A program made the translations under genes and the position numbers. A stretch of 64,000 bases of DNA from Candidatus Eiseniibacteriota bacterium. GTDB lineage: Bacteria > Eisenbacteria > RBG-16-71-46 > CAIMUX01 > VGJL01. Positions within the stretch are counted from its first letter, which is position 1; every line of letters begins with the position of its first letter. Below the pieces are notes generated by a model. That model made no database searches and had not been told where the DNA came from. It was given only the letters and a program-made list of their open reading frames with translations. The DNA lies in the NCBI GenBank assembly GCA_963792585.1, contig CAWBWI010000001.1, positions 736,001-800,000 of the forward strand, in the 5' to 3' direction. Positions 6,304-63,192 of the stretch are shown here, piece by piece.

Positions 6304-7662
6304 ATGAAACTCCGCGCTGCCCTAGCGCTTGTCGCGATCCTCGCCGCGCGCCCGAGTCTTGGCGTGAACTGCTACTATGCCGTCCTGCACTCCCACACCT
6401 CCTACTCGGATGGGATCGGAACTCCGGAGGACGCGTTCACCTATGCGCGTGATGTGGCGAATATCGATGTCCTGGGACTCACAGAGCACACGCACCTGCT
6501 CACCGCGACCGAGTGGTCCCAGCTTCTCGCGACCGCCGACAGTTTCTGCCAGGACGGTGTCTTTGTCGCGCTCGGTGCGCAGGAGTTCGGGAATCTGAAC
6601 GACTTCGGTCATCTGGGGATCTACGACTCGCCGTTCAAGAACCCAAATGAGACCGAGAACCTACTCGGCAGCTACCAGTTCATGAGGAGCTACGGGGCGA
6701 TCGGGGGGTTCAATCATCCGAACCCCGAGTACGGGACGAATTTCAACGACCTGGCATTCTACCCAGATTACGTCAACGAGCTGATCTCCATCGAAATCCG
6801 AAACGGAGTCCGGGCCGACGACTACGAGCCTCAGTACATTCAGGCGCTCCGCAACGGCTGGCACATCGGGCCGTTCGCCAACCAGGACAATCACGAAGGA
6901 CACTGGGGAGACCAGGGGAATCCGAATAGCGGGGGACAGATCTACCTTACCGGGATCCTCGCGAACAGCCTGACGAAGGCGGACATCCTGGATGCCCTGC
7001 GTGCCCGGCGTTTCTTCGCCTGCGAGGTGGACCCTCCGTCGGACAGGATGGAGCTGGAGTTTTATGCCAACGGGCAGATCATGGGCTCATCGATCGTATC
7101 TTCGGCTCACCTTGCTTTGACGGGAACGGCCCGCGCGGTCAACGGTGTGAGCCTGTTTAACAGAGTCGACCTCTTTGAAGACGGAGTGATCGTCCGCACC
7201 TCGCAGCAAATCGGCACGAGCATCTCATGGACGTTCGATGAGGGCTTGGTGGACGGTGAGAGCCATTTCTACTTCGTGCGGGTCACGCAGGTCGACGGCG
7301 ACCACTCCTGGTCCGCACCCATCTGGGTGACCGCGGATGTCGATCCGGCCGGCGCGGGGGAGGCGCCCTCAACGGACGGCTTCGCCGTCGGCATCCTGGG
7401 CCCAAATCCTTCCGGGGAGACGACCCGATTCTCGATTCACATTCCCAAGCGGGAGACTGCTGCGGAGGTGTCGATCGACATCTTCGACATCCGGGGAAGG
7501 GTCGTCGGACGGATGGAGCCTCAGCGGTTCGGCCCGGGGTTCCACACCTGGAGCTGGGTGGGTTCGGAGGGTGGCGGAGCGCTTCCCGCCGGCGTCTATT
7601 TCGCCCGCTTGGCGGCCGACGGGAAGCCGGTGGCCTGTCGTCGGTTGGTTCGCATGCCGTAG
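6304..7662 (+). CDS. Secreted PHP-family (CehA/McbA-like) metallohydrolase with C-terminal FlgD-Ig/T9SS-type sorting domain
   Basis: Signal peptide; HSHTSYSDG, TEH, NHP, DNH metal ligands; C-terminal PNP...IDIFDIRGRVV...LPAGVYFARL. Confidence 0.85.
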   Translation: MKLRAALALVAILAARPSLGVNCYYAVLHSHTSYSDGIGTPEDAFTYARDVANIDVLGLTEHTHLLTATEWSQLLATADSFCQDGVFVALGAQEFGNLNDFGHLGIYDSPFKNPNETENLLGSYQFMRSYGAIGGFNHPNPEYGTNFNDLAFYPDYVNELISIEIRNGVRADDYEPQYIQALRNGWHIGPFANQDNHEGHWGDQGNPNSGGQIYLTGILANSLTKADILDALRARRFFACEVDPPSDRMELEFYANGQIMGSSIVSSAHLALTGTARAVNGVSLFNRVDLFEDGVIVRTSQQIGTSISWTFDEGLVDGESHFYFVRVTQVDGDHSWSAPIWVTADVDPAGAGEAPSTDGFAVGILGPNPSGETTRFSIHIPKRETAAEVSIDIFDIRGRVVGRMEPQRFGPGFHTWSWVGSEGGGALPAGVYFARLAADGKPVACRRLVRMP

Positions 7663-8049
7663 AAGCACGCACAATCTAGCCTGAATCTCGCCGGCAACAA
7701 TTTTTCTTCTTGTCTCTACCGCCCGACGCCTAGAAACTCTGGGTAGCCGGGAGGGGAGGAGTCATGGGTGCGCGATGGGTGTCCTGGGCGATTCCGATCG
7801 CTCCGCGTTTCGCGGCGATCGCTGCGAGATCTACCCTCCGTCGGCCGCAACTCCTTGTGCCTTCCGCGATTAGGAGCGATTTCCCCGGGGTTTGGACTCG
7901 TCGAGCCAAGCGCAGTTCGGGCTTCCTCCGGTATCCTCGACGGCGATGGAAATGCCCCGCCCTCTGCGGGGTAGTACCTAGTGTGTCTTGGTCGGTGTTC
8001 ATTTGGGAGGGGCCGGCCGCCGGAGGCGGCCTTCTGGAGGTTGGCAGCG

Positions 8050-8682
8050 ATGCCTCGCTACTTTGAAGATCCGAACCAGTGGGAGAAGCCCGAAAAGAAC
8101 AAGTTTCTCCCCGCCCTTGCGGCAAGAAGTTGGTATCTGGTCGTTCCGCTGATCGCAGTCTGGTGGTTCCACACGAAGGCGGTCGTCCCCCAGATCGCGG
8201 CGATCGATCAGAAAATCGTGGAGGACCGGAAGGAAACCGAGTTGATACGCAGCAAGACGCTGGCCGAGGCGCGCGGGCTCGGGGTAGAGATATCCAAGCT
8301 CCGGGCCGAGGCGGACACCTTCTCCGTGCGCAGCGGTCAATATGCCGCGGTGCTCGACAGCGTACTCGCCATTCAGCGGAAGCACGTCAGCGAGACGCAT
8401 CGGCTCGAGATTCAGTCCGACTCGCTCCGAGCGATCCTCTCCGAAACGGACGGGAAGTCGCTTGTGTATTCGGACTCCTTGACGCGAATGCAAGCGCAAG
8501 TCGATTCGCTCCGCACGCTGATCGATAGCCGCCTGGCCGAGGCAAAGCGCCTGGAAGAGGAGATCGCGGTGAATCGCGACCTCGCCGATCGGCTGAATCG
8601 TCCCGAGATCTATCGAAAGAACACGGCGCTCGTCACCGGATCGGGAAACTACCCGAACCGGGACGCCTTGCCGAAGCGCTAG
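8050..8682 (+). CDS. Membrane-anchored coiled-coil hypothetical protein
   Basis: GGAGG RBS; one N-terminal hydrophobic segment followed by a long heptad-like region. Confidence 0.75.
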   Translation: MPRYFEDPNQWEKPEKNKFLPALAARSWYLVVPLIAVWWFHTKAVVPQIAAIDQKIVEDRKETELIRSKTLAEARGLGVEISKLRAEADTFSVRSGQYAAVLDSVLAIQRKHVSETHRLEIQSDSLRAILSETDGKSLVYSDSLTRMQAQVDSLRTLIDSRLAEAKRLEEEIAVNRDLADRLNRPEIYRKNTALVTGSGNYPNRDALPKR

Positions 8683-8697
8683 GGGAGGGATCGAACT

Positions 8698-9678
8698 GTG
8701 GTTCGGCATTGGACGGACGACGATACCCCGAGGGAGAAGTTCAAGCTTCGTCCGAAGCACGCCTTTCTCCTCGTCGACCTGGCGGTCCTGGCGGTCATCT
8801 TCACGGTCGCGGGTCGGATGTATGTGAACTCCCACGGCGCCAAGCTGATCGCCGCCAAGGAACAGCAGCGCGTCGCCGCCCAGGCGGAGAACGCCGCGCT
8901 CTTGATGCAGGCGGACTCCGTTGCGGCCGCCGCGAATTCATCACTCACGGAGATGAAGTCGGAGCATTCCCAGACGATCGACGAGCTTCAGCGTCTCAAG
9001 ACGCAACTCGAGAATGACGTCCCCAGAACGCGGCAACTCGAGCAGGGTCTCTTCCGCCTCTCCGACATGGTCCTCGACCTGCGCGAGCGGAGCGTGGTCG
9101 CGAACAAGGAGTTGAAATCCCGCGAGCGCAACGCGCACGAGAGAAGCGCGGAGGTCGACTCGCTCCGCAACAAGTCGGATCGCACGACGCAGGCGCTCAC
9201 TCAGACCCAAGCCGAGTATGCGAGCGCGACCACGGATCTTGGACAGGCCAAGCAGAGTGAGGCCCATGACCCGAAGGGGCTCTTTCCGGCCTCCACGGGG
9301 GTGGCGCTCCGGCGCGACATGAGCGCCAACCAGGACCTCACCAACCTCGAGTTGCAGCATCTCTTCTATAATTCGGGGATGAACGATCTGGGTGTTTCGA
9401 TGGCCTTTGGACTCGGATCGAACGATGAGGTCGCATCGAACAAGGAGGTGGGGCTCCTTCTGACGCGACCCTTAATTCACCGCAGGCTGGGGCTGGACCT
9501 TGGGGCGGGATTCTCCCAGCTCTCGAATACGGGCGGCACTGATGACAACGGGGCGTACGCGTCGGCGGCCCTGCGACTCTCGCCGTTCTACAAGGAGCGA
9601 TTCCACGTCGGCCTTGGGGCGCGGGCGAGCCACGGGGACTTCGTGCCGTTCCTCGGCTTCTCCATCGGCCGGCGATAG
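8698..9678 (+). CDS. Membrane-anchored coiled-coil protein with C-terminal beta-barrel-like domain
   Basis: RBS GGGAGG; N-terminal TM, about 145-aa coiled coil, about 125-aa C-terminus of alternating hydrophobic/Gly strands. Confidence 0.72.
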   Translation: MVRHWTDDDTPREKFKLRPKHAFLLVDLAVLAVIFTVAGRMYVNSHGAKLIAAKEQQRVAAQAENAALLMQADSVAAAANSSLTEMKSEHSQTIDELQRLKTQLENDVPRTRQLEQGLFRLSDMVLDLRERSVVANKELKSRERNAHERSAEVDSLRNKSDRTTQALTQTQAEYASATTDLGQAKQSEAHDPKGLFPASTGVALRRDMSANQDLTNLELQHLFYNSGMNDLGVSMAFGLGSNDEVASNKEVGLLLTRPLIHRRLGLDLGAGFSQLSNTGGTDDNGAYASAALRLSPFYKERFHVGLGARASHGDFVPFLGFSIGRR

Positions 9679-9695
9679 GCGGAGGGACCACGGAG

Positions 9696-10685
9696 ATGGG
9701 TGCGCCGGATTCGATGCAGACCCAGCCGCCGGGACGGCCGCACGCACCGCGTCTCCGCGCGCGTATCTGGGTCTACCTGTCGATCGTGGTTGCACTGCTG
9801 GCATTCCGGGTTGTCCCGGGGTTGGTCAGTCGCTGGAGAACCTCCGAGGAGCTTCGCAATGCTCCCAAGACGCTCACGCTCGCGGGACTGGACCTCGCCC
9901 CCACGCTCATCCCGCGGATCGTCGACTCCTACCGCGTTCTCTACCCGCACATTGAATTCCAGATTCTGCCGGGAGGCACCCGGCAAGCGCTCGAGGACCT
10001 CTTCAATCTGCGGGCCGACGTGGCATTCACGAGCAGGCCGATGACAATCGATGAGCAAAGAATCGTGCGCGCCATCGGAGACACCGCGTTGTCTTTCCCG
10101 ATCGCCCTGGGTGGTATCGCCGTTCTCGGCGCGACTGGAATGCCCCCGGACTCGCTCCCGATCGAGCAGCTCCGACGAATCCTCCGTGGAGATCGCCCGA
10201 GCGATCTGCAGGTTCCGGAGCCGGATCACCTCTACGCGGCGGATCCGAATCTGGGACTCTGGACGGCACTTACGACCCAACTGGGTCTCCCGGACTCCAC
10301 CGGCGCGGCAATCTCCTGGCTCGCGAGCGATTTCGACGTCATCCAGGCCGTGGGAAACGATCGGGGCTCGCTCGGCTTCGTGAGCACGCTCGCGCTGCCC
10401 GCGGACCTCGATCGGCGCGGCGTGCGTCCGATCGGCCTCCGGGGCGAGCAAACCTGGGAGGCCGCGACCCTGACCGAGGGTAACGTCGCCGGCGGGGCCT
10501 ATCCTCTCTTTCACTATCTGTACGTCTCCTGCCGGCCCGAGGGTGGACCGTTGGCCTCCGGGTTCGTCTCGTTTCTGAACAGCGGCAAGGGCCAACGTCT
10601 CGTCGAGCGGGAAGGATTCCTGCCGGCCAGGGCGATGCCTCGCGAGATCGAACTGGTGCAGAGACCGATCAGCGCGACCGGTTGA
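9696..10685 (+). CDS. PstS-like substrate-binding protein (PBP2 fold) with N-terminal anchor
   Basis: GGTRQAL...ADVAFTSRPMT..E, IALGGIAV, YPLFHYLYV, FVSFLNSGKGQRLVEREGFLP. Confidence 0.8.
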   Translation: MGAPDSMQTQPPGRPHAPRLRARIWVYLSIVVALLAFRVVPGLVSRWRTSEELRNAPKTLTLAGLDLAPTLIPRIVDSYRVLYPHIEFQILPGGTRQALEDLFNLRADVAFTSRPMTIDEQRIVRAIGDTALSFPIALGGIAVLGATGMPPDSLPIEQLRRILRGDRPSDLQVPEPDHLYAADPNLGLWTALTTQLGLPDSTGAAISWLASDFDVIQAVGNDRGSLGFVSTLALPADLDRRGVRPIGLRGEQTWEAATLTEGNVAGGAYPLFHYLYVSCRPEGGPLASGFVSFLNSGKGQRLVEREGFLPARAMPREIELVQRPISATG

Positions 10686-10711
10686 CATCCACGAGGAAGG
10701 GAGAGATCTAG

Positions 10712-12582
10712 ATGCTCAGACGTTCGGAACCCAGAAGGATCGGCCACCCCCGTGCCCGCGGTCTGGTGGTGTGGTTGGTCCTGATGTCGATTCCGCTCAT
10801 GGCATTCGCCGCGAAGAAGAGCTACCGGTATGAAGACGATCCCAATCGGCTCGGCATGAAGGCCGTCGATGAAAGTCGCTTCGATGATGCTCAGAAGTAC
10901 TTCGACGAGGCGATCGCAAATGAGTACCAGGTCTACAAGGCTCACTACGGTCTTGCCCAGATCAAGGCGATTCAGGGCGGCTATGGCGATGCGGAACCGC
11001 TCTACCGCCTGGCCCTGATGGAGAAGAACCAGGAGACGGGCTCCCCTGACTATCCGGAATGCCATGCGAGCCTCGGGCTCGTGCTATTGCGGCTGGGACG
11101 GGACGCCGAAGCGAAGCAGGAATTCGACCTGGCCCTGCGCGAGAAGGGGAACGTCTGGGAGGCCCAATACGGGATGGCCCGGGTGCTCATCCTCGAGCAG
11201 AAGTACGACGATGCGGCCAAGCTGCTGGAGAAGGGGTCGAAGAAGAAGGGGAAGCTCGACGGCGAGGACTACTACCGGTACGGAATGGCGCTGGTGCAGA
11301 TGGCCCAAGGAGACCTTCCGGCGGCGGAGAAGAACGCCCTGGCCGCGCTCAACCTGAATCCGAGCGACCCGGACTATGGGACGCTCGTGGCGGAGATCTA
11401 CACCCAGCGGGGCGTTCCGACCCTTGCGATCGAGGCCTACGAGAAGGCTCTCGCAACACCCGGAGTGCGGATCACGGCGCCAATTCGCCACAGCCTCGGT
11501 CTCCTCTATCAGAAGGAAGCGATCACCAATCGCGATCAGGCCATGTTCGGAAAGGCGCGCGATCAATATCAGGAAGCGGCAAAGATCGACTCCACCTTTG
11601 CGCCCGCCTGGAAGGACCTTGCCGACCTCATGCTGCTGGCCAAGCGCTACGAGGATGCGGCGGGCGGCTACCTCCGATACAGCAACTTGCGGAGGGATGA
11701 CCCCGCGGGATTCCTCGGTTTCGCCGAGGCGGCGCTCAAGCTTCGTGGCTACTCCAAGCCGGCGTACGAGGCGGCGCAGCAGGCCTTCCGGCTCGACAGC
11801 ACAACGGTCCGCAGCAGGCTGATCCTGGCCCGTTCCGCTTTCCAGGCGAAGGACCGGGGGGCCGCGGCGCGGGTCTACGGAACGGTCACGGACTCCACGC
11901 AGTTCGAAGCAAACGACTACCTGGCCATCGGCCAGATGAAACTCGAACAGAAGGACTTCGCGGCGGCCGACCGCGCGCTCATGAAGTCGGTGGCGATGGA
12001 CTCGACTCTTGCCGACGCGTACTTCTCGCTTGGCTTGCTGGATCTCAATCAGCAGAAGCCGGATTCCGCGTTGGTGCACTTCCAGAAGTCCGTGGAGCTC
12101 GCGCCCAACAACATGGGCGGCTGGCTCAACAAGGGGATCGCCAGCTTGCAGCTGAAGCAGAACAAGGATGCCGTAGCTTCGCTTCGCAGGGCCACGCAAC
12201 TCGCTCCGGACTTTGCGCAAGCGCGCGTCTACTTGGGCAACGCCCTTCTACAGGTCGATTCCCTCACGGCGGCCAGCGTCGAATTCAAGGTCGCTAGAGA
12301 GAAGGACCCCAAAACCAGGGGGCTTTGCGGGGACTCGCTTTCTGCTACCTTAAGCGAGGCGACTACGGACAGGCTGTTTCCGTGATGAAGGATGCTACGA
12401 CCGCCGACCCCAGCAACGCTGACAATTGGATGATGTTGGGTCGGGCTCTCGTGGGGAACGGGAACAACGCCGGAGCGATCGATGCCTTCAAGAAAGTGCT
12501 GGAGTTGAAGCCGGACAACAAGGATGCGAAGGATGCGATTGCCATCCTGACCGGGGCCAACAAGAGCGCGGGCGGCAAGTAG
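10712..12582 (+). CDS. Secreted TPR-repeat protein, one frameshift at about 12311-12314
   Basis: Signal peptide and many TPR helices; adding one A to the A4 run joins DPK(N)QGALRGLAFCY in the ORF 12325-12582 frame. Confidence 0.85.
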
Positions 12583-12615
12583 GAAGCGTCGGACCAAGAG
12601 GAGAGGGTTGAAAGC

Positions 12616-12966
12616 ATGACCTTGGACGTGGAGAAGCGCGGCGATGTTCATATCCTCAAACCTCGAAAGGACCTGAGCGGCGGAGAGGAGACGAGGGAGA
12701 TCGAGAAGGCGATTCAAGACATCATCGCTCAAGGGCCGCCGCATGTCGTCATCGACCTAGGGAAGGTCTCCTATGTGAACAGCACCGGCCTGGGGTCTCT
12801 CGTAGCGGCACACACGAGTTGTCGAAACCGTGAGGGCTGGCTTCGGCTGGCACAGATCGGCAAGAGAATCAAGAACCTGTTCCTGATCACGAAGTTGGCG
12901 TTTGTTTTCGAGACTTTCGATAGCGTCGATGAGGCCATCGAAGGCAAGGACCGCGGAGAAAAGTGA
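12616..12966 (+). CDS. STAS-domain anti-sigma factor antagonist
   Basis: VVIDLGKVSYVNSTGLGSLV with conserved phospho-Ser, LFLITKL..VFETFDSVDEAI. Confidence 0.92.
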   Translation: MTLDVEKRGDVHILKPRKDLSGGEETREIEKAIQDIIAQGPPHVVIDLGKVSYVNSTGLGSLVAAHTSCRNREGWLRLAQIGKRIKNLFLITKLAFVFETFDSVDEAIEGKDRGEK

Positions 12967-12992
12967 GCTAAGAGCTTAGCCGGAGGATTCAA

Positions 12993-13721
12993 ATGAAGGG
13001 TTACGTGTTCATCCCCATCCTGATCGTCTCGTTGCTGATCTCCCTGGCGATCTACCAGTACCTTTTGCCGGAGTTCATCAAGCTCGGCGGCTACCTTGTC
13101 CCGTTCCTCTTGATGCTCTCGATGCTCCTGCTCACGTTCATCGTCGAGAGGTTGATCACCTTGAAGAAGGCACAGGGACGCGGCGATTTCAGCGGGTTCT
13201 CCCGGGCCCTCAAGAAGTCGATCGACAGTGGGAAGATGGATGACGCCATCAATGTCTGTCGCAAGCAGGGCGGCTGCTTGGCCAATGTCGTGGGCGCCGG
13301 CCTCGAGCGCTTCAGCCAGTTGAGCAAGGCCAATCTCGAGAAGGACGAGGTCGTCGATGAGACGCGTCGCGCGATCGAAGAGGCCAACGCCCTCGAAACC
13401 CCCTTGCTCGAGCGAAATCTGATCGCCCTCTCGACGATCGCCTCGATCGCGACGATGGTCGGTCTGCTCGGCACCACGATCGGCATGATCCGCTCGTTCA
13501 AGGCGATGGGGCACGCGGGCGCCCCGGACGCGATCCAGCTGGCGGTCGGGATCTCCGAGGCGCTCATCAACACGGCCGGCGGCCTCATCATCGCTATCCT
13601 CGGAATCATCATGTACAACTTCTTCACCAACAAGGTGGACAGCTTCAACTACCAGATGGATGAGACTTCCTACGAGGTGATGGAGCTCCTGCGGCACCAG
13701 AAGGAAAGGGGCAATGTCTAA
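12993..13721 (+). CDS. exbB: MotA/TolQ/ExbB proton channel protein
   Basis: LSTIASIATMVGLLGTTIGMIRSF, GISEALINTAGGL. Confidence 0.92.
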   Translation: MKGYVFIPILIVSLLISLAIYQYLLPEFIKLGGYLVPFLLMLSMLLLTFIVERLITLKKAQGRGDFSGFSRALKKSIDSGKMDDAINVCRKQGGCLANVVGAGLERFSQLSKANLEKDEVVDETRRAIEEANALETPLLERNLIALSTIASIATMVGLLGTTIGMIRSFKAMGHAGAPDAIQLAVGISEALINTAGGLIIAILGIIMYNFFTNKVDSFNYQMDETSYEVMELLRHQKERGNV

Positions 13722-14160
13722 GCGGCACGCCAAGCGGATCGCGGTCCGCATCGACATGACCCCAATGGTCGACGTGGCGTTCCTGCTGCTGATCTTCTTC
13801 ATGTCGACGACCCAGTTCAAGCCGCCGGAGGAGGTCGCCGTCGTCCTGCCGGCGTCGAGTTCGGAGATCAAGGTCCCGGAGACGGGAATCATCGTGATCA
13901 CGGTCAACAAGAGCGGCAAGATCTTCATCGGGGACGAGTCCGGACAGGCGGGAGAAGTGCCGAAGGACGACATCATGAACGCCATCGTCACGGCCCGCAG
14001 CCGCCGACCCACTGCGCGTGTGATCGTCAAGGGCGACAAGGATGCCCAATACGGCTTGATCGCCGACGTGATGGATGCTCTTCAGAATACGCAGACCAAC
14101 CGGTTCAACTTGATGACCGAGTTGAAGACCACGTCGGGTCCGAAGCAGAAGGAGAACTGA
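13714..14160 (+). CDS. exbD: Biopolymer transporter ExbD
   Basis: IDMTPMVDVAFLLLIFFM; IVKGDKDAQYGLIADVMDAL. Confidence 0.92.
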   Translation: MSKRHAKRIAVRIDMTPMVDVAFLLLIFFMSTTQFKPPEEVAVVLPASSSEIKVPETGIIVITVNKSGKIFIGDESGQAGEVPKDDIMNAIVTARSRRPTARVIVKGDKDAQYGLIADVMDALQNTQTNRFNLMTELKTTSGPKQKEN

Positions 14161-14164
14161 GCCC

Positions 14165-14659
14165 ATGGCGGGCATGGACGCAGCAGAACCTAAAGAACGG
14201 AAGAAGGGTTCGGGCTTACGGCGGCAGAAGCGGCGCGTCAGCATCCGAATTGACATGACGCCGATGGTCGACATCGCCTTCCTTCTGCTCATCTTCTTCA
14301 TGGTGACGACGGTCTTTCGCAAGCCCCAGGCGATGGAGGTCAACCTCCCGCCGGCCGGCGTGACGGTTCAGGTCCCTGAGTCGAACGTCATCACACTCTT
14401 CGTTCGGGCTGATGAGCGGATCTATTTCCGGAAGGCGACGGGGCCCCTGGAGTCGACGGCGATGAAGGATCTCGTGCAGTTCTTCACGGATGAGCACCGG
14501 CTCAACCCCGAGCTGATCGTCCTCGTCAAGGTTCATCGGGAAGCGCGCTATGAGACGATGGTCGACGTGATGGACGAACTCGAGCTTGCCGATATGAGCC
14601 GATTCAGCCTCGTGCCGATGCAGCCCGAGGATGTGAAGGAAGTGGAGGCTCTTCCATGA
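14165..14659 (+). CDS. exbD: Biopolymer transporter ExbD (second copy)
   Basis: IDMTPMVDIAFLLLIFFMVTT; ARYETMVDVMDEL. Confidence 0.92.
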   Translation: MAGMDAAEPKERKKGSGLRRQKRRVSIRIDMTPMVDIAFLLLIFFMVTTVFRKPQAMEVNLPPAGVTVQVPESNVITLFVRADERIYFRKATGPLESTAMKDLVQFFTDEHRLNPELIVLVKVHREARYETMVDVMDELELADMSRFSLVPMQPEDVKEVEALP

Positions 14660-15417
14660 CGAAGGCTCCGAAGACCTACGTCACCGGGTTCGAGCACGCG
14701 GAGCACCTACCGGTCACGGGAGAATTGCATCCACTTCGGATCAGGTCGCGGCGCTTCACATTCTGGGCGACCGGCGTTGCCACGGCGTTTCACCTCGTTG
14801 CCTTCGGCGGCTGGTTCATCGCCCGCAACATGCAGAAGGAACCGGAGCGCCCTCGTGAGGTCAGAATCGTGAAGTACACCGAACTCGGAGTGCCGCCCTC
14901 GATCGCTGCGGATGCACCCCAAGCTGTGCAGGTCGCCGCGGCGGTGGCGCCTCCTTCACTCGGTGTTCCGGAACCGGTGCCGGATTTCCAGGCAACGACC
15001 AGCACGATCGCGACCCAGGACCAGCTCGCCCAGATGTTGACCCCGACGAGTCTGTCCAACCTCGACGGCGGGGGAGGAGACTCCCTCGTGGTCGATATCC
15101 CCACGGGAGACGCCGGCGGAGACAACCCGTCTCCGGACGACTTCGTGGCCGTGGAGGAGATGCCCGTTCTGATCTCCATGCCGCCGCCTGTCTACCCTGA
15201 CATGGCGCGGCAAGCGGAGGTTGAGGGAACCGTCATGGTCCGCGCGTTGGTGGGTAAGGACGGGAAGGTCCAGGACGCCTTCGTGACCGAAGGCATCCCG
15301 ATGCTCAACGATGCTGCCGTCGCGGCGTCGAAGAAGGCGGTGTTCAAACCCGCCCTCCAGCAACACAAACCCGTCGCGGTTTGGGTCCAGATCCCGATGC
15401 GCTTCACTCTCAACTGA
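14656..15417 (+). CDS. tonB: Energy transducer TonB
   Basis: TM with His (ATAFH), Pro-rich linker, YPDMARQAEVEGTVMV...FKPA...PVAVWVQIPMRF. Confidence 0.92.
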   Translation: MTKAPKTYVTGFEHAEHLPVTGELHPLRIRSRRFTFWATGVATAFHLVAFGGWFIARNMQKEPERPREVRIVKYTELGVPPSIAADAPQAVQVAAAVAPPSLGVPEPVPDFQATTSTIATQDQLAQMLTPTSLSNLDGGGGDSLVVDIPTGDAGGDNPSPDDFVAVEEMPVLISMPPPVYPDMARQAEVEGTVMVRALVGKDGKVQDAFVTEGIPMLNDAAVAASKKAVFKPALQQHKPVAVWVQIPMRFTLN

Positions 15418-15444
15418 CCCTACGAATCCTCGTCAAGCTCTACG

Positions 15445-15478
15445 GGCCCCGAATCCAGACAGGATTCGGGGCCTTCTC
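15445..15478 (+). terminator. Intrinsic terminator after tonB
   Basis: GGCCCCGAATCC-agaca-GGATTCGGGGCC followed by TTCT. Confidence 0.7.
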
Positions 15479-15565
15479 CGTCGGTTGGATGGCTCGAAGC
15501 TCCATCGAGGCGTTGCGTCCGGCGCCGCAGCCGCATATGCTGTCGGCCCGAGAAGGGGGAGCCAT

Positions 15566-16111
15566 ATGTCCATCCTGATCGATGTCGGACTGGCCGCCGT
15601 GGTCGTCCTCAGCCTCCTGGCCGGGATCAAGACCGGTCTGGTGGACTCCGTGTTCTCTCTGGCCTCATGGGTCGTGGGGGGACTGGTCGCATTCCGAGCA
15701 TCGGCGCCCATTCTCTCGCACCTCCCGGACCGGTTTCAGGCGATCCCCGGGGCTGTCGTACTGACCGGCGTTCTCCTATTCCTGGCGACCTACTTCGTCA
15801 TCCGGAGCATCGGGACCCTCGCAAGCGGAAGTTCGAAGGGGGGTTCGAGTGGATTGGATCGATTCTCCGGAACCATCTTCGGCGTGGTGCGGGGGGTCTT
15901 CCTCGCTGCTGCGGTGGCCTGTTTCCTCGTCGGCTATCTTCCCCACGATTCCCGGATGATCCGTGGAAGCCGGGCCCTTCCGATCCTGGCGCCGGCGGGG
16001 CGCATCGTTGCCGGGCTCGCGCCCGGAGCGATCCGCACGCGCATGGATCGCGGCTGGGCCCGCCTCCAGGCCGAGCCCCGACCTCCGGCAGGTGGGGCGG
16101 TCGAAGCCTAG
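15566..16111 (+). CDS. cvpA: CvpA-family membrane protein
   Basis: IDVGL...GIKTGLVDSVFSL, LDRFSGTIFGVVRG, IRGSRALP. Confidence 0.85.
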   Translation: MSILIDVGLAAVVVLSLLAGIKTGLVDSVFSLASWVVGGLVAFRASAPILSHLPDRFQAIPGAVVLTGVLLFLATYFVIRSIGTLASGSSKGGSSGLDRFSGTIFGVVRGVFLAAAVACFLVGYLPHDSRMIRGSRALPILAPAGRIVAGLAPGAIRTRMDRGWARLQAEPRPPAGGAVEA

Positions 16112-17337
16112 GTTCGGTTCCCTGCTCCGGTCGGCGGAGTCGTTCGCGCCCGGAGATCCACGAAGCTGCGGATCATCGCGGCGGCCGGCACCGCGATGAC
16201 GACCCCGATCGGTCCAAGAACCGCGCCGAAGACGAGCACCGATATCAGCGTCAACGCCGGGTTCAATCCGACCGCGTGACCGACGATGCGTGGAGAGAGC
16301 ACCTGCCCTTCGATCACCTGTTCGACGGCGAAGACAATCGCCAAGCGCAGCAGGAGTGTCCCCGGCTCGGCGGAGAGGATGGCCGAGGCCACACAGAGTA
16401 CGACAACTGTCCAGAAGCCGAGCACAGGAATCAAGTTGAGCAATCCCGCCAGGAATCCCAGTGGAATCGCATACGGCAGGCCGATGATGAGGAACCCGAC
16501 CGTCAAGAGCACACCAACCGCGAGGGCCACGAGCACCTGCCCGCGATAATAGGCGCTGATCGTCCCCTCGATGATGCCGAACCATTCGGCCGCTTGCGCG
16601 CGCCGGTCGGTTGGAATCCGGTCCCGGATCCAGAGCGTCAGCTTGTCGAAGTCCGCAAGCATGTAGTAGGTGAGGATCGGGGCCAGGACCGCCATCGCGA
16701 GGACGCTCAGCACCGCGCCGATTCCCTTGGTAACTCCGGCAGCGCCCCCCCAAACCCCTTTCAAGATCGTCTCGAGGTGCCCCGAGACGGGCCTGAGCCA
16801 TGTCGTCAGGTCGGGTGCCTGCGAGTCCGGGATGAAACGGGAAATGAGGGGAAGCAAGCGCTCGTAGGCCGTGTTGAGAGCGCCGGGAAGCGCCCGGAAG
16901 AGGGTCCCCAGCTGCTCGATCATCGGGGGAAGCATGAAGAGCACGAAGACCGCGCCGATCACGAGGACCGGGAGAATGGCGATGAGGGAGCCGACGCTCC
17001 GAGGGACCCGCCGCCTCTCCAGACGGTCAACGATCGGGTCCAGCCAGTACGCCACGAGCAAACCTACCAGGAGGGGATAGACAACCATCCGCGACTTGTG
17101 GAGAATCCAGAGCGATCCAAGCAACCCCAGCAAGGCGAGGATCTGCCGGGCCCACGGCTGCCTGCGGGCAGGCCATGTGAGGGTCGCTGCCGCCGCGATC
17201 AGGGCGATCAGCCCCAGTTCGCGGAAGAGGGTCCAGAGCAGCAACAGCAGAACGCCGCCGATGAGCAAACCCGGGATGCTCAGGATCGTGGGCGGTCCCG
17301 ATGGGGACGAGTCAGGGGAGGGATGGTCCTGTGTCAT
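16108..17337 (-). CDS. AI-2E (PerM) family transporter
   Basis: AYWLDPIVDRLERRRVPR, YYRGQ, LNLIPVLG, QVIEGQVLSPRIVGHAVGLNP. Confidence 0.92.
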   Translation of the reverse strand: MTQDHPSPDSSPSGPPTILSIPGLLIGGVLLLLLWTLFRELGLIALIAAAATLTWPARRQPWARQILALLGLLGSLWILHKSRMVVYPLLVGLLVAYWLDPIVDRLERRRVPRSVGSLIAILPVLVIGAVFVLFMLPPMIEQLGTLFRALPGALNTAYERLLPLISRFIPDSQAPDLTTWLRPVSGHLETILKGVWGGAAGVTKGIGAVLSVLAMAVLAPILTYYMLADFDKLTLWIRDRIPTDRRAQAAEWFGIIEGTISAYYRGQVLVALAVGVLLTVGFLIIGLPYAIPLGFLAGLLNLIPVLGFWTVVVLCVASAILSAEPGTLLLRLAIVFAVEQVIEGQVLSPRIVGHAVGLNPALTLISVLVFGAVLGPIGVVIAVPAAAMIRSFVDLRARTTPPTGAGNRT

Positions 17338-60819: not shown

Positions 60820-60893
<74 letters not shown>

Positions 60894-60938
60894 TCGACGA
60901 TCGCAATTGCTACCGATACCAGTCGCAGCCGAAAGGGG

Positions 60939-61490
60939 TCAAGGGGCCCCTTCCGAGGGAGCATATCGAACCAGCGACTCGACGGGCGCATCGGTCAAGC
61001 GCCCGCGGCCGCCGAGGGCGTCGATCTCCGCGAGAAAGAGATATCCGGCGACGTCTCCTCCGGCCCTGCGCACGAGGCGCCCCGTCGCCGCCGCGGTACC
61101 CCCCGTGGCGAGCACGTCGTCGACGATCCAGGCGACCGCCCCGCGCGGAATCGCGTCCGCATGCATCTCGAGCGTTCCCTCGCCATACTCGAGGGCATAG
61201 CGCTCGGAAATCGTCTCGAACGGCAACTTCCCGGGTTTGCGCACGAGGACCATCGGCAGGCCCCGGCGCAGAGCAATCCCCGCTCCCAGGACGAATCCGC
61301 GCGCCTCGACCGCCACGACATGCGTCGCGGTCGCGCCCGCCGGCGAGTCGGCCATCGCCGCGATCGTTTCCCCGAAGAGCTCGGGTCTCAAGAGCAGCGT
61401 GCTCACGTCCCGGAACAGGACCCCCGGCTGCGGGAAATCGGGGATGTTGCGGATCGCGCTGCGGACCCGGGCGGAAAGATCATTGTTCAT
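60939..61490 (-). CDS. apt: Adenine phosphoribosyltransferase
   Basis: IPDFPQPGVLFRD, EARGF, RKPGKLP, YALEYG, VDDVLATGGT. Confidence 0.96.
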   Translation of the reverse strand: MNNDLSARVRSAIRNIPDFPQPGVLFRDVSTLLLRPELFGETIAAMADSPAGATATHVVAVEARGFVLGAGIALRRGLPMVLVRKPGKLPFETISERYALEYGEGTLEMHADAIPRGAVAWIVDDVLATGGTAAATGRLVRRAGGDVAGYLFLAEIDALGGRGRLTDAPVESLVRYAPSEGAP

Positions 61491-61518
61491 GGGGATCCTC
61501 GTTTGCGGGGGGGAAGAA

Positions 61519-61594
<76 letters not shown>

Positions 61595-61653
61595 ACCCGA
61601 CCGAAACTTCCTTGCGAAACCTATCACCCGACCCGCTATCTGACAAGCACCTT

Positions 61654-62318
61654 TCAACCACGCCCCTCCTGCCAGCCCTCGCGCCCGATGAGGGGCACGA
61701 AAGAGCAAAGGCAGCTTTCCTCCTCGTGGAAGCCGTCCACGCGCCGCTCGATGATCCGGAGCACTTGCTGCGAACCGGCTCCGATCGGGATCACCAATCG
61801 CGCCCCCATCGCGAGTTGCTCTCGGAGGCTGTCCGGCATCTTCGGCGCCCCTGCAGTGACGACGATCCCGTCGAACGGGGCGAACTGCTTCCAACCGACC
61901 GTGCCGTCCCCTACACGTTGCACGACGTTCGTGATCGAGGCGTCGGCGAGTATCTTCTGGGCGCGCTGGGCCAGGGGCGCGATTCGCTCGACCGTGAAGA
62001 CGGTGCGCACGAGCGTGGCGAGGATCGCGGCCTGGTAACCCGATCCCGTTCCGATCTCGAGAATGCGATCGTCCGGCTGCGGCTGCAGCGCCTCGGTCAT
62101 GAGGGCGACCATGTAGGGCTGCGAGATGGTCTGGCCGTGACCGATCGGGAGCGCATAGTCGCCGTATGCCCCCCCTGCATCGCCGGCTCGACGAACAGGT
62201 GGCGCGGCACCTTCAGGAACGCGTCGAGGACCCGCTCATCGCGGATGCCCCGAGAGCGAAGCTGCTGCTCGACCATCCTGGTCCGAGCCGCGACCGGATC
62301 GACGCCCGGCTCGTTCAC
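61654..62318 (-). CDS. pcm: Protein-L-isoaspartate O-methyltransferase, one frameshift in G7 run at 62169-62175
   Basis: MVEQQLRSRGI, VPRHLFV, PIGHGQTISQP, LEIGTGSGYQAA, APFDGIVVTA, FVPLIG. Confidence 0.92.
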
Positions 62319-63082
62319 TTCCCGGTCCCGCCGGAAAGGTCCCACGCCGCGAGTCCCTCCATGGCCCGGTAGTCGGTCGCATCCAGTTGGATCGGCGTGA
62401 TCGAGACGTAGCCCTCGTCGACCGCATCGAGGTCACTGCCCGGCTGCGCATCCCACGTCGGCTTGTCGCCCCCGATCCAGTAATAGGGGCGCCCGCGCGG
62501 GTCGGTCTTCCCGACGATCCGGTCACGGTAGATGCGTTTCCCGAGACGCGTGATCCTGTATCCCTTGATCTCCTCCTCGGACAGCGACGGCACGTTCACG
62601 TTGACCAGGGTGCCGTCCGGCAGCCCATGCTCCATGAGGCTCCGCACGACCGTGCGCGCCACGGCTCCCGCAGCGACGAAGCCGCCGGGACGCCAGTCGT
62701 CGAGCGAGATCGCAATCGCGGGACATCCCATCATCCGACCCTCGATCGCCGCGGCCACGGTTCCGGAGTACGACACGTCGTCCCCCAGATTCGCCCCGTG
62801 ATTGATGCCGGAGACGACGAGGGCAATCGGCGCCTCGATCAAGTCGGGGACTCCCCTGCATGCGAGCAGAACGCAATCGGTCGGGGTCCCGTCGACGGCG
62901 AAGGTTCGTGGTCCCAGCTGCCGGACGCGCAGGGGCCGGTGCAACGTGAGCGCGTGGCTCGTGGCGCTCTGCTCCCGTTCGGGGGCGACGACCCAGATCC
63001 TCCCGAGCGGCTCGATGGCCTCCCGGAGCGCCGATAGACCTTCGGCGAGTATCCCGTCGTCATTGGTGAGCAGAATGTCCAT
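62315..63082 (-). CDS. surE: 5'/3'-nucleotidase SurE
   Basis: [40 protein letters not shown]. Confidence 0.96.
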
Positions 63083-63114
63083 TGGGATCCCGAGGGGCCC
63101 TGGTCGGAAAAGAG

Positions 63115-63192
<78 letters not shown>

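Follow-up and report, generated by a model that had tools for sequence, protein, structure and literature searches.

Two adjacent genes of Candidatus Eisenbacteria may encode a fixed-length coiled-coil strut between the inner and outer membranes

Can two small proteins hold the two membranes of a bacterial cell at a set distance? The question is raised by a pair of adjacent genes, here called P1 and P2, in a 64,000-nucleotide stretch (the window) of a Candidatus Eiseniibacteriota genome (assembly GCA_963792585.1, contig CAWBWI010000001.1, positions 736,001 to 800,000; coordinates below count from the first letter of the window). P1 (8050-8682, 210 amino acids) and P2 (8698-9678, 326 amino acids) are open reading frames (ORFs) on the same (plus) strand, which also carries the operon downstream. 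We propose that the two proteins form a parallel, in-register coiled-coil strut with a fixed length of about 22 nm that is anchored in both membranes, a reading to which we give roughly an even chance.

The gene models are well defined. An initial annotation, made from the sequence alone, had placed both ORFs correctly and had begun P1 at ATG 8050; this start fits the homologues, which begin with MPR, and has GGAGG 10 nucleotides upstream, whereas the ORF list had GTG 7981. P2 starts at GTG 8698, which is preceded by GGGAGGG, and its homologues start at the corresponding place. Neither protein matches a Pfam or NCBIfam family above the cut-off. The NCBIfam matches far under the cut-off (SMC, HlyD, RecN, Rad50 and others) were set aside as coiled-coil noise, as was a Pfam KIF9 match confined to the coiled coil. 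An HlyD-type periplasmic adaptor was likewise dropped, since the match to TIGR01843 reaches 16 bits, where the cut-off is 208.65, and covers the coiled coil only.

The two proteins share a layout that the initial annotation had already described, namely a charged stub, one apparent transmembrane segment and a long coiled coil in each, and hydropathy, AlphaFold2 (AF2) and the heptad period agree with it. P1, a predicted bitopic coiled-coil protein, has a single apolar stretch (residues 19-40), and AF2, given 32 sequences, models an unbroken helix from 19 to 183 with a predicted local distance difference test score (pLDDT) of 80-97, followed by a disordered tail with a pLDDT of about 50. In its putative membrane helix (residues 19-41; 8104-8172), Arg26, Trp28, Leu30 and Pro33 are invariant in 32/32 aligned sequences, and the R.W[YFW] motif that begins with Arg26 and the proline are retained in 9/9 paralogues. 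The predicted periplasmic coiled coil (residues 42-183; 8173-8598) leads into the tail (8599-8679; RPxxYRKNxALVTGEGDFPNRDALPKR), which is the best-conserved part of the protein, with a mean column identity of 0.83, compared to 0.63 for the membrane helix and 0.54 for the coiled coil. Motifs that take up their fold on a partner typically combine such high conservation with predicted disorder, and the tail may be one. The Bacteroidetes TonB box VVVTGYG resembles the tail segment NTALVTGSG; a TonB box was kept as a lead only, as this segment is only loosely like the boxes of the genome's own receptors (EVVITA, EVVIEA and VEIRAE-like).

P2 combines a similar N-terminal part with a different end. 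It has one apolar stretch (residues 21-39), and its AF2 model (43 sequences, mean pLDDT 83) comprises two helices, 19-114 and 119-189, and then eight strands between residues 200 and 324. The N-terminal hydrophobic helix (residues 21-40; 8758-8817) contains an invariant Asp27, a near-invariant His21 and a candidate signal-peptidase site after Gly39. It is followed by a coiled coil (residues 41-189; 8818-9264) that is free of indels across the family and by an eight-stranded β-barrel domain (residues 190-326; 9265-9675) that ends GRR. Asp27 is invariant in 43/43 aligned sequences, and an acid occupies the same position in 10/10 paralogues (9 Asp, 1 Glu) of a family that is about 25% identical. 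Arg26 of P1 and Asp27 of P2 both lie 6-8 residues into the apolar stretch, counted from the cytoplasmic side. As in P1, the membrane helix of P2 is more conserved than its coiled coil (mean column identity 0.60 versus 0.48).

In 93 of 95 scorable P2 proteins, 164 residues separate the acid from the DP...FP motif at the opening of the barrel. One of the two exceptions stands at 165 and the other is a pattern mis-hit that gives 164 by eye; the 95 were drawn from 121 proteins, the other 26 being fragments or divergent paralogues missed by the patterns. Of 14 loci, 12 could be scored; all 12 have the same spacing, among them paralogues that are about 25% identical. In P1, the distance from Arg26 to the tail tyrosine is 162 residues (40 proteins) or 163 (3 proteins) in 43/43 scorable of 46, and 162-163 in 11 of 12 loci, the remaining one (L033) lacking the motif. 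Because the two spacings match, the P1 tail would start level with the end of the P2 helix and the start of the barrel if the arginine and the aspartate are themselves level. Zero-indel spacing, maintained in about 100 sequences from two types of paralogue, is a clean sign of a molecular ruler and a rare one.

The region between these fixed points has the periodicity of a coiled coil. In family-averaged hydropathy, the 3.5-residue period is the strongest in P1, with a constant phase from 56 to 181 save one shift near 84, and it is dominant in P2, with a constant heptad phase from about 61 to 187. The initial annotation had counted about 145 helical residues, near the width of the periplasm, which holds here: the heptad-periodic region covers 145-150 residues, and a helical span of about 150 residues (P2 40-189) corresponds to about 22 nm at 0.15 nm per residue. 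However, AF2 breaks the P2 helix at 115-118, where the pLDDT falls below 50, and a folded-back hairpin is possible. Because the heptad phase runs straight through this kink, we infer that the break is probably an artefact of modelling a monomer. The P1 coiled coil also contains DS[LV] repeats (LDSV 102-105, SDSL 124-127, SDSL 141-144 and VDSL 151-154), and P2 carries an invariant QADSV (71-75), with a further ADS about 19 residues on in the family consensus.

The two genes travel together. At E values of 0.001 or below, P2 has 93 relatives, nearly all of 313-330 amino acids, and P1 has 46, mostly of 207-224 amino acids; the few that are named are Candidatus Eisenbacteria, and P1 and P2 as adjacent genes were found only in Eisenbacteria-like genomes. 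The P2 profile matched 37 of 201 genomes of the phylum. By family, it matched 32/32 genomes of f1-f4 (the window's own genome excluded), 2/2 of f13, 2/87 of f5 (short, weak stretches only) and 0/41 of f8. P1 lies immediately upstream of P2 in 14/14 orthologous loci and precedes it in 5/6 short paralogous loci, the sixth giving no tblastn match at all. With their matched lengths and complementary intramembrane charges, P1 and P2 thus look like an obligate pair, a conclusion supported in silico.

The surroundings of the pair fall into three kinds. First, orthologous pairs head a PstS-TPR-STAS-ExbB-ExbD-ExbD-TonB operon (L022-L025), with the PstS-like gene directly downstream of P2 in 13/13 assessable loci. 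Second, in f13 (L029, L032) the pair stands directly upstream of genes for a TonB_2 (TolA-like), a PD40 (TolB-like), an OmpA-family (Pal-like) and a TPR_6/YfiO (YbgF-like) protein. Third, in f3 and f4 (L026, L027, L028, L031, L035) the paralogous pair, about 25% identical, lies behind the gene for a 1743-1800-residue Peptidase_C25, FG-GAP and FlgD_ig protein, which we take to be gingipain- or PorU-like, and no Ton genes are near. Mostly, a helical protein of 500-540 amino acids without a Pfam family is encoded between the C25 peptidase gene and the pair; a PorV-like identity was considered for a 525-residue example and dropped, as no barrel could be seen by eye and no Pfam family was matched.

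Does the N-terminal helix of P2 stay in the inner membrane, as the proposed strut would have it? Several observations weigh against this. A site after Gly39 agrees with the (-3,-1) rule in 88% of the 43 sequences, with a small residue at -1 in 100% and an allowed residue at -3 in 88%. With the conserved Gly38-Gly39 closing the apolar run, a long signal peptide is one way to read the segment, and an acid also occurs within the signal-peptide core of a TonB-dependent receptor of this genome. Barrel proteins ordinarily carry a cleaved signal peptide, so that cleavage would also be the usual route. Under this alternative, mature P2 would resemble an OmpM or SlpA that lacks the wall-binding domain, an outer-membrane barrel with a 150-residue helical stalk that reaches the inner-membrane-anchored P1, and the bridge would consist of two proteins. 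The behaviour of the segment in the family argues otherwise. Both paralogue types retain the acid, in 53/53 aligned sequences; the helix is preceded by a stub of 20 residues with partial conservation and exceeds the coiled coil in conservation. In 93 of 95 proteins no indel interrupts the stretch from Asp27 to the barrel, a constraint that would not apply to a peptide that is discarded. Moreover, P1 has a matching invariant arginine at equal depth, and the AF2 helix of P2 is unbroken from 19 to 114. We regard cleavage as less likely than a retained helix, although it is the most serious of the alternatives.

In the C-terminal domain of P2, AF2 models residues 196-325 as an eight-stranded barrel, with a pLDDT of about 90 over 200-324, and thus bears out the annotation's expectation of a barrel of about eight strands, six of which it had listed. 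In Foldseek (E value of 0.001 or below), the 27 matches listed out of 38 are without exception barrels of the outer membrane or designed transmembrane barrels (TMBs), and Ail, a designed TMB, OmpA, FapF, OmpX and PagL head the list. In VIA-align, the best superpositions are with OprF-N (Z 17.0, root-mean-square deviation (rmsd) 2.2 Å, 122 residues), a designed TMB (16.7), OmpA (16.1) and PagL (15.9), followed by NspA and OmpW (about 14.6), whereas soluble designed barrels reach a Z of about 13.5 or less over about 102 residues. The AlphaFold check that the annotation had proposed thus yields a barrel whose best structural matches are outer-membrane rather than soluble barrels, with an exterior of the type that faces lipid.

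The sequences of the strands are in line with this model. In 21 sequences of both paralogue types, strands 1, 3, 5, 7 and 8 have one face of Leu, Val, Phe and Ile, and the two faces differ by 2-4 hydropathy units; the opposite face holds the invariant Gly232, Gly252, Asp267, Gly271, Arg293 and Gly307 and the near-invariant Arg309. In strands 2, 4 and 6 the face pattern is less clear. Conserved basic motifs (HRR 261-263, YKER 298-301 and GRR 324-326) fall in the predicted periplasmic turns, while the predicted outer loops consist of 4 variable residues. Because the first strand leaves a periplasmic helix, the conserved basic turns would lie on the periplasmic rim and the variable loops outside. 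As modelled, the P2 domain shows the pattern of a minimal outer-membrane anchor.

The end of the chain is unusual for such an anchor and weighs against it. P2 ends GRR rather than with an aromatic residue, as do nearly all family proteins (117/121 end GRR, GR or GRK), whereas 5 of the 9 full-length receptors of the genome end in Phe or Trp. The last strand, VPFLGFSIGRR, does resemble the end of one TonB-dependent receptor of the genome, ILPFIGLSVWS. The non-aromatic end also speaks for another possibility, that the domain is a soluble periplasmic barrel and P2 a TolA-like inner-membrane protein presenting a binding domain on a helical stalk. The very high sequence conservation with its many conserved charged residues, the matches to designed soluble eight-stranded barrels (Z about 13.5) and the vicinity of tolA and tonB genes would suit such a role. 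But the bulky hydrophobic and the Gly/charged faces are arranged like those of membrane barrels, outer-membrane barrels account for all of the higher-scoring and longer structural matches (Z 14.5-17 over 120-128 residues), and the predicted outer-side loops are minimal and variable. A soluble domain is in our view improbable, and an outer-membrane barrel remains the preferred assignment.

In sequence searches, the barrel stands apart. No barrel-family profile (OmpA_membrane, OMP_b-brl and the like) matched it in Pfam or NCBIfam at an E value of 0.1 or below, and a profile of the domain found nothing below an E value of 0.02 among the sequences of the Protein Data Bank. The ESM Atlas gave leads under 0.9 only, the best (0.89) being a cluster with DUF481 in 12% of its members. 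Against 1.84 billion cluster representatives, the C-terminal-domain profile retrieved 35 proteins of 104-338 amino acids, none of them a fused or longer form. Because all 35 share this size range and the C-terminal position of the domain, the barrel family appears to be closed.

In the window, the pair is followed by a set of genes spaced by 17-30 nucleotides or slightly overlapping. These encode a PstS-like binding protein with an N-terminal hydrophobic segment (9696-10685; PBP_like_2, E 9.5e-17), a TPR protein in two frames (10712-12582), a STAS-domain protein (12616-12966; PF01740, E 3.7e-16), an ExbB/TolQ-type proton channel (12993-13721; MotA_ExbB match), two ExbD/TolR paralogues (13714-14160 and 14165-14659), which are the only two in the assembly, and TonB (14656-15417; TonB_C, E 8.7e-19). 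The annotation had noted that the pair leads a TonB-ExbBD operon without a TonB-dependent receptor; the operon is confirmed, and no Plug match was found within the window, all 11 Plug receptors of the genome lying elsewhere. The assembly (G000), which is 84% complete, has two MotA_ExbB matches, namely the window ExbB and one at C3:871 kb beside flagellar-type genes (a MotB-like reading). It also encodes 7 TonB_C proteins and, at C1:1490338-1494191, a tolA-tolB-pal-ybgF cluster with no tolQ-tolR beside it. Because the only non-flagellar ExbB and the only two ExbD found lie in the window, the ExbB-ExbD motor adjoining P1-P2 would, as far as the assembly shows, serve the 11 Plug receptors, the 7 TonB_C proteins and the Tol cluster.

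However, the Ton operon is present without P1-P2 in f5 and f8, with ExbB proteins 53-59% identical to that of the window (tblastn), and because it exists without the pair in these two families, the pair is not a core part of the Ton motor. Families without P1-P2 retain the order PstS-TPR-STAS-ExbB-ExbD-ExbD-TonB, so the pair was added ahead of an older operon. Synteny across related genomes, to which the annotation had looked for a check, therefore gives a divided answer: the pair does head the Ton operon in orthologous loci, but the operon is older than the pair, and the pair also occurs far from Ton genes.

The position of the pair brings up one more reading of the buried aspartate, in which P2 would be an ExbD/TolR/MotB-like plug subunit, with its Asp helix inside the ExbB pentamer and its barrel anchoring the stator to the outer membrane, much as the OmpA-like domain of MotB anchors a stator to the wall; P1 would be a TonB/TolA-like output arm. 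Like ExbD, TolR and MotB, P2 has a single N-terminal helix with a conserved aspartate near its cytoplasmic end, and VDLAVLAVIF (FNPxxxxPIIDIL in the paralogues) looks like MVDVAFLLLIFF of the window ExbD. Comparison by hhalign puts Asp27 on the ExbD aspartate, albeit with a probability of 2% and an E value of 0.022 over 21 columns. In f13, moreover, the pair takes the place upstream of tolA-tolB-pal-ybgF that tolQ-tolR usually occupy. Unlike these proteins, P2 has no significant profile match to them, and its periplasmic part is entirely different. Pfam ExbD matched 0/7 P2 N-terminal segments even at an E value of 10 or below (3/7 gave weak DUF4330 matches, E 0.045-0.23), the paralogous pairs are far from any ExbB, and the operon already has two ExbD genes. 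A plug subunit is as improbable to us as a soluble barrel, and the strut is taken up again below.

Several features of the region deserve mention in their own right. The PstS-like protein lacks a lipobox; its N-terminus is a long run of charged sequence with an apolar segment (IWVYLSIVVALLAF), and the protein may be anchored in a membrane rather than free or lipidated. In the TPR gene the frame changes near 12310-12325, and the surrounding segment (12290-12345) contains CCCC, AAAA and GGGGG runs; the last 85 TPR-like residues are read in the other frame, whereas body and tail are in one frame in L022-L025. The change is either a real frameshift or an assembly error. The STAS gene, of the anti-sigma antagonist type, keeps its place between the TPR gene and exbB even in families without P1-P2 (L036, L037). 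Upstream of the pair, the gene at 6226-7662 matches a PHP domain weakly, and its C-terminus resembles FlgD_ig / Por_Secre_tail, a sorting domain in the style of type IX secretion, with all scores below Pfam cut-offs. This gene also precedes the pair in several close relatives (L005, L006, L008, L022). Three tRNA genes (Arg-CCT, Pro-CGG and Pro-GGG) lie on the minus strand at 60820-63191.

Contigs from four metatranscriptome libraries, derived from a relative about 95% identical, span 7700-10700 with zero indels and cross both the P1-P2 and the P2-PstS junctions. The locus may thus be expressed, though such libraries can hold DNA and a contig over two genes does not equal a single transcript. 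A promoter scan of 7500-16300 gave no sigma-70-like site and unconvincing terminator-like sites, and Rfam gave no match near the P1 and P2 genes.

We then propose a model for the strut, in which pairing, membrane locations and docking are extrapolated from the anatomy, conservation, lengths and synteny observed. The N-terminal helices of the two proteins would remain embedded in the inner membrane and pair via Arg26 of P1 and Asp27 of P2, and the P1 and P2 helices would wind round each other across the periplasm. The P2 barrel would insert into the outer membrane as a minimal anchor, and the conserved tail of P1, starting level with the barrel, would dock on its basic periplasmic rim. The strut would probably act as a spacer or staple that fixes how far apart the two membranes are where the Ton/Tol force transducers work, a role that fits the place of the pair before the sole ExbB-ExbD set of the assembly and before the f13 tolA-tolB-pal-ybgF genes.

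More tentatively, it is tempting to speculate that P2 is the first single chain anchored in both bacterial membranes, made of a buried-Asp helix, an exact 164-residue ruler and an OmpA-like barrel, clamped by P1 via an intramembrane Arg-Asp pair and serving as a staple for Ton/Tol machines; we hold this fuller version to be possible, with the chances somewhat against it. Precedent also counts against it. A literature search, with most subscription journals outside its reach, showed no protein that unites a membrane helix, a coiled coil and an outer-membrane barrel in one chain, and we know of no precedent for the assembly of a chain anchored in both membranes.

The proposed strut borrows features from several known systems. 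With OmpA, OprF-N, OmpX and PagL, the P2 barrel as modelled shares the fold (the model of residues 196-325 superposes with Z 15.9-17.0 and an rmsd of 2.2-2.7 Å over 121-123 residues) and the arrangement of a hydrophobic outside and a Gly/charged inside. As in OmpA-type proteins, eight strands behind a periplasmic helix would put both barrel termini in the periplasm, as the AF2 model implies. Unlike them, P2 has no sequence relation to the OmpA type, outer loops of about 4 residues and a GRR end, and its barrel closes a chain that begins with a membrane helix and a 150-residue coiled coil.

Closer in overall plan are OmpM of diderm Firmicutes and SlpA of Deinococcus, in which, according to two reports, a periplasmic coiled-coil stalk bears a C-terminal outer-membrane barrel and tethers the envelope (PMC10628300, PMC9388160). 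P2 has the same succession of stalk and C-terminal barrel. OmpM and SlpA bind peptidoglycan via SLH domains, whereas P2 has no SLH match in Pfam and has an apolar N-terminal helix. The barrels of OmpM and SlpA are large; that of P2 has eight strands and comes with a dedicated partner protein.

For Braun's lipoprotein, Lpp, one report describes a coiled-coil length that sets the spacing of the envelope (PMC8824477). The zero-indel lengths of P1 and P2 point to a length constraint like the one described there. Lpp, a lipoprotein of 58 residues, connects the outer membrane with the wall; P1 and P2 have about three times its length and would connect the two membranes with each other.

TolA and TonB are described as starting with a single membrane helix, crossing the periplasm with a spacer and placing a C-terminal module close to the outer membrane (PMC12204202). 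P1 and P2 likewise have a hydrophobic N-terminal helix, which in P2 bears the candidate cleavage site, and a long spacer, and their genes stand beside ExbB-ExbD or tolB-pal. Unlike TolA and TonB, P1 and P2 have no TonB_C or TonB_2 domain, which are present in the window TonB and the f13 neighbours. The TonB/TolA helix contains an SHLS motif with an internal His; the helices of P1 and P2 carry Arg or Asp as their charge and have no SHLS-type His inside. The spacer of the pair is a heptad coiled coil of invariant length, and the end of P2 would be embedded in a membrane.

Known outer-membrane tethers such as Lpp, Pal, OmpA, OmpM and SlpA fasten to the cell wall, and the machines known to span the envelope are assemblies of several proteins. 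A fixed-length strut between both cell membranes would be a link of a kind not previously described. If the proposal is true, such a membrane-to-membrane link would set periplasmic width in a new way, and this applies equally to a single chain and to a coiled coil of two proteins. It would also pose a puzzle of biogenesis, in that the barrel would have to assemble in the outer membrane although the other end of its chain is kept in the inner one. The idea of a ruler is directly testable by the addition or removal of heptads.

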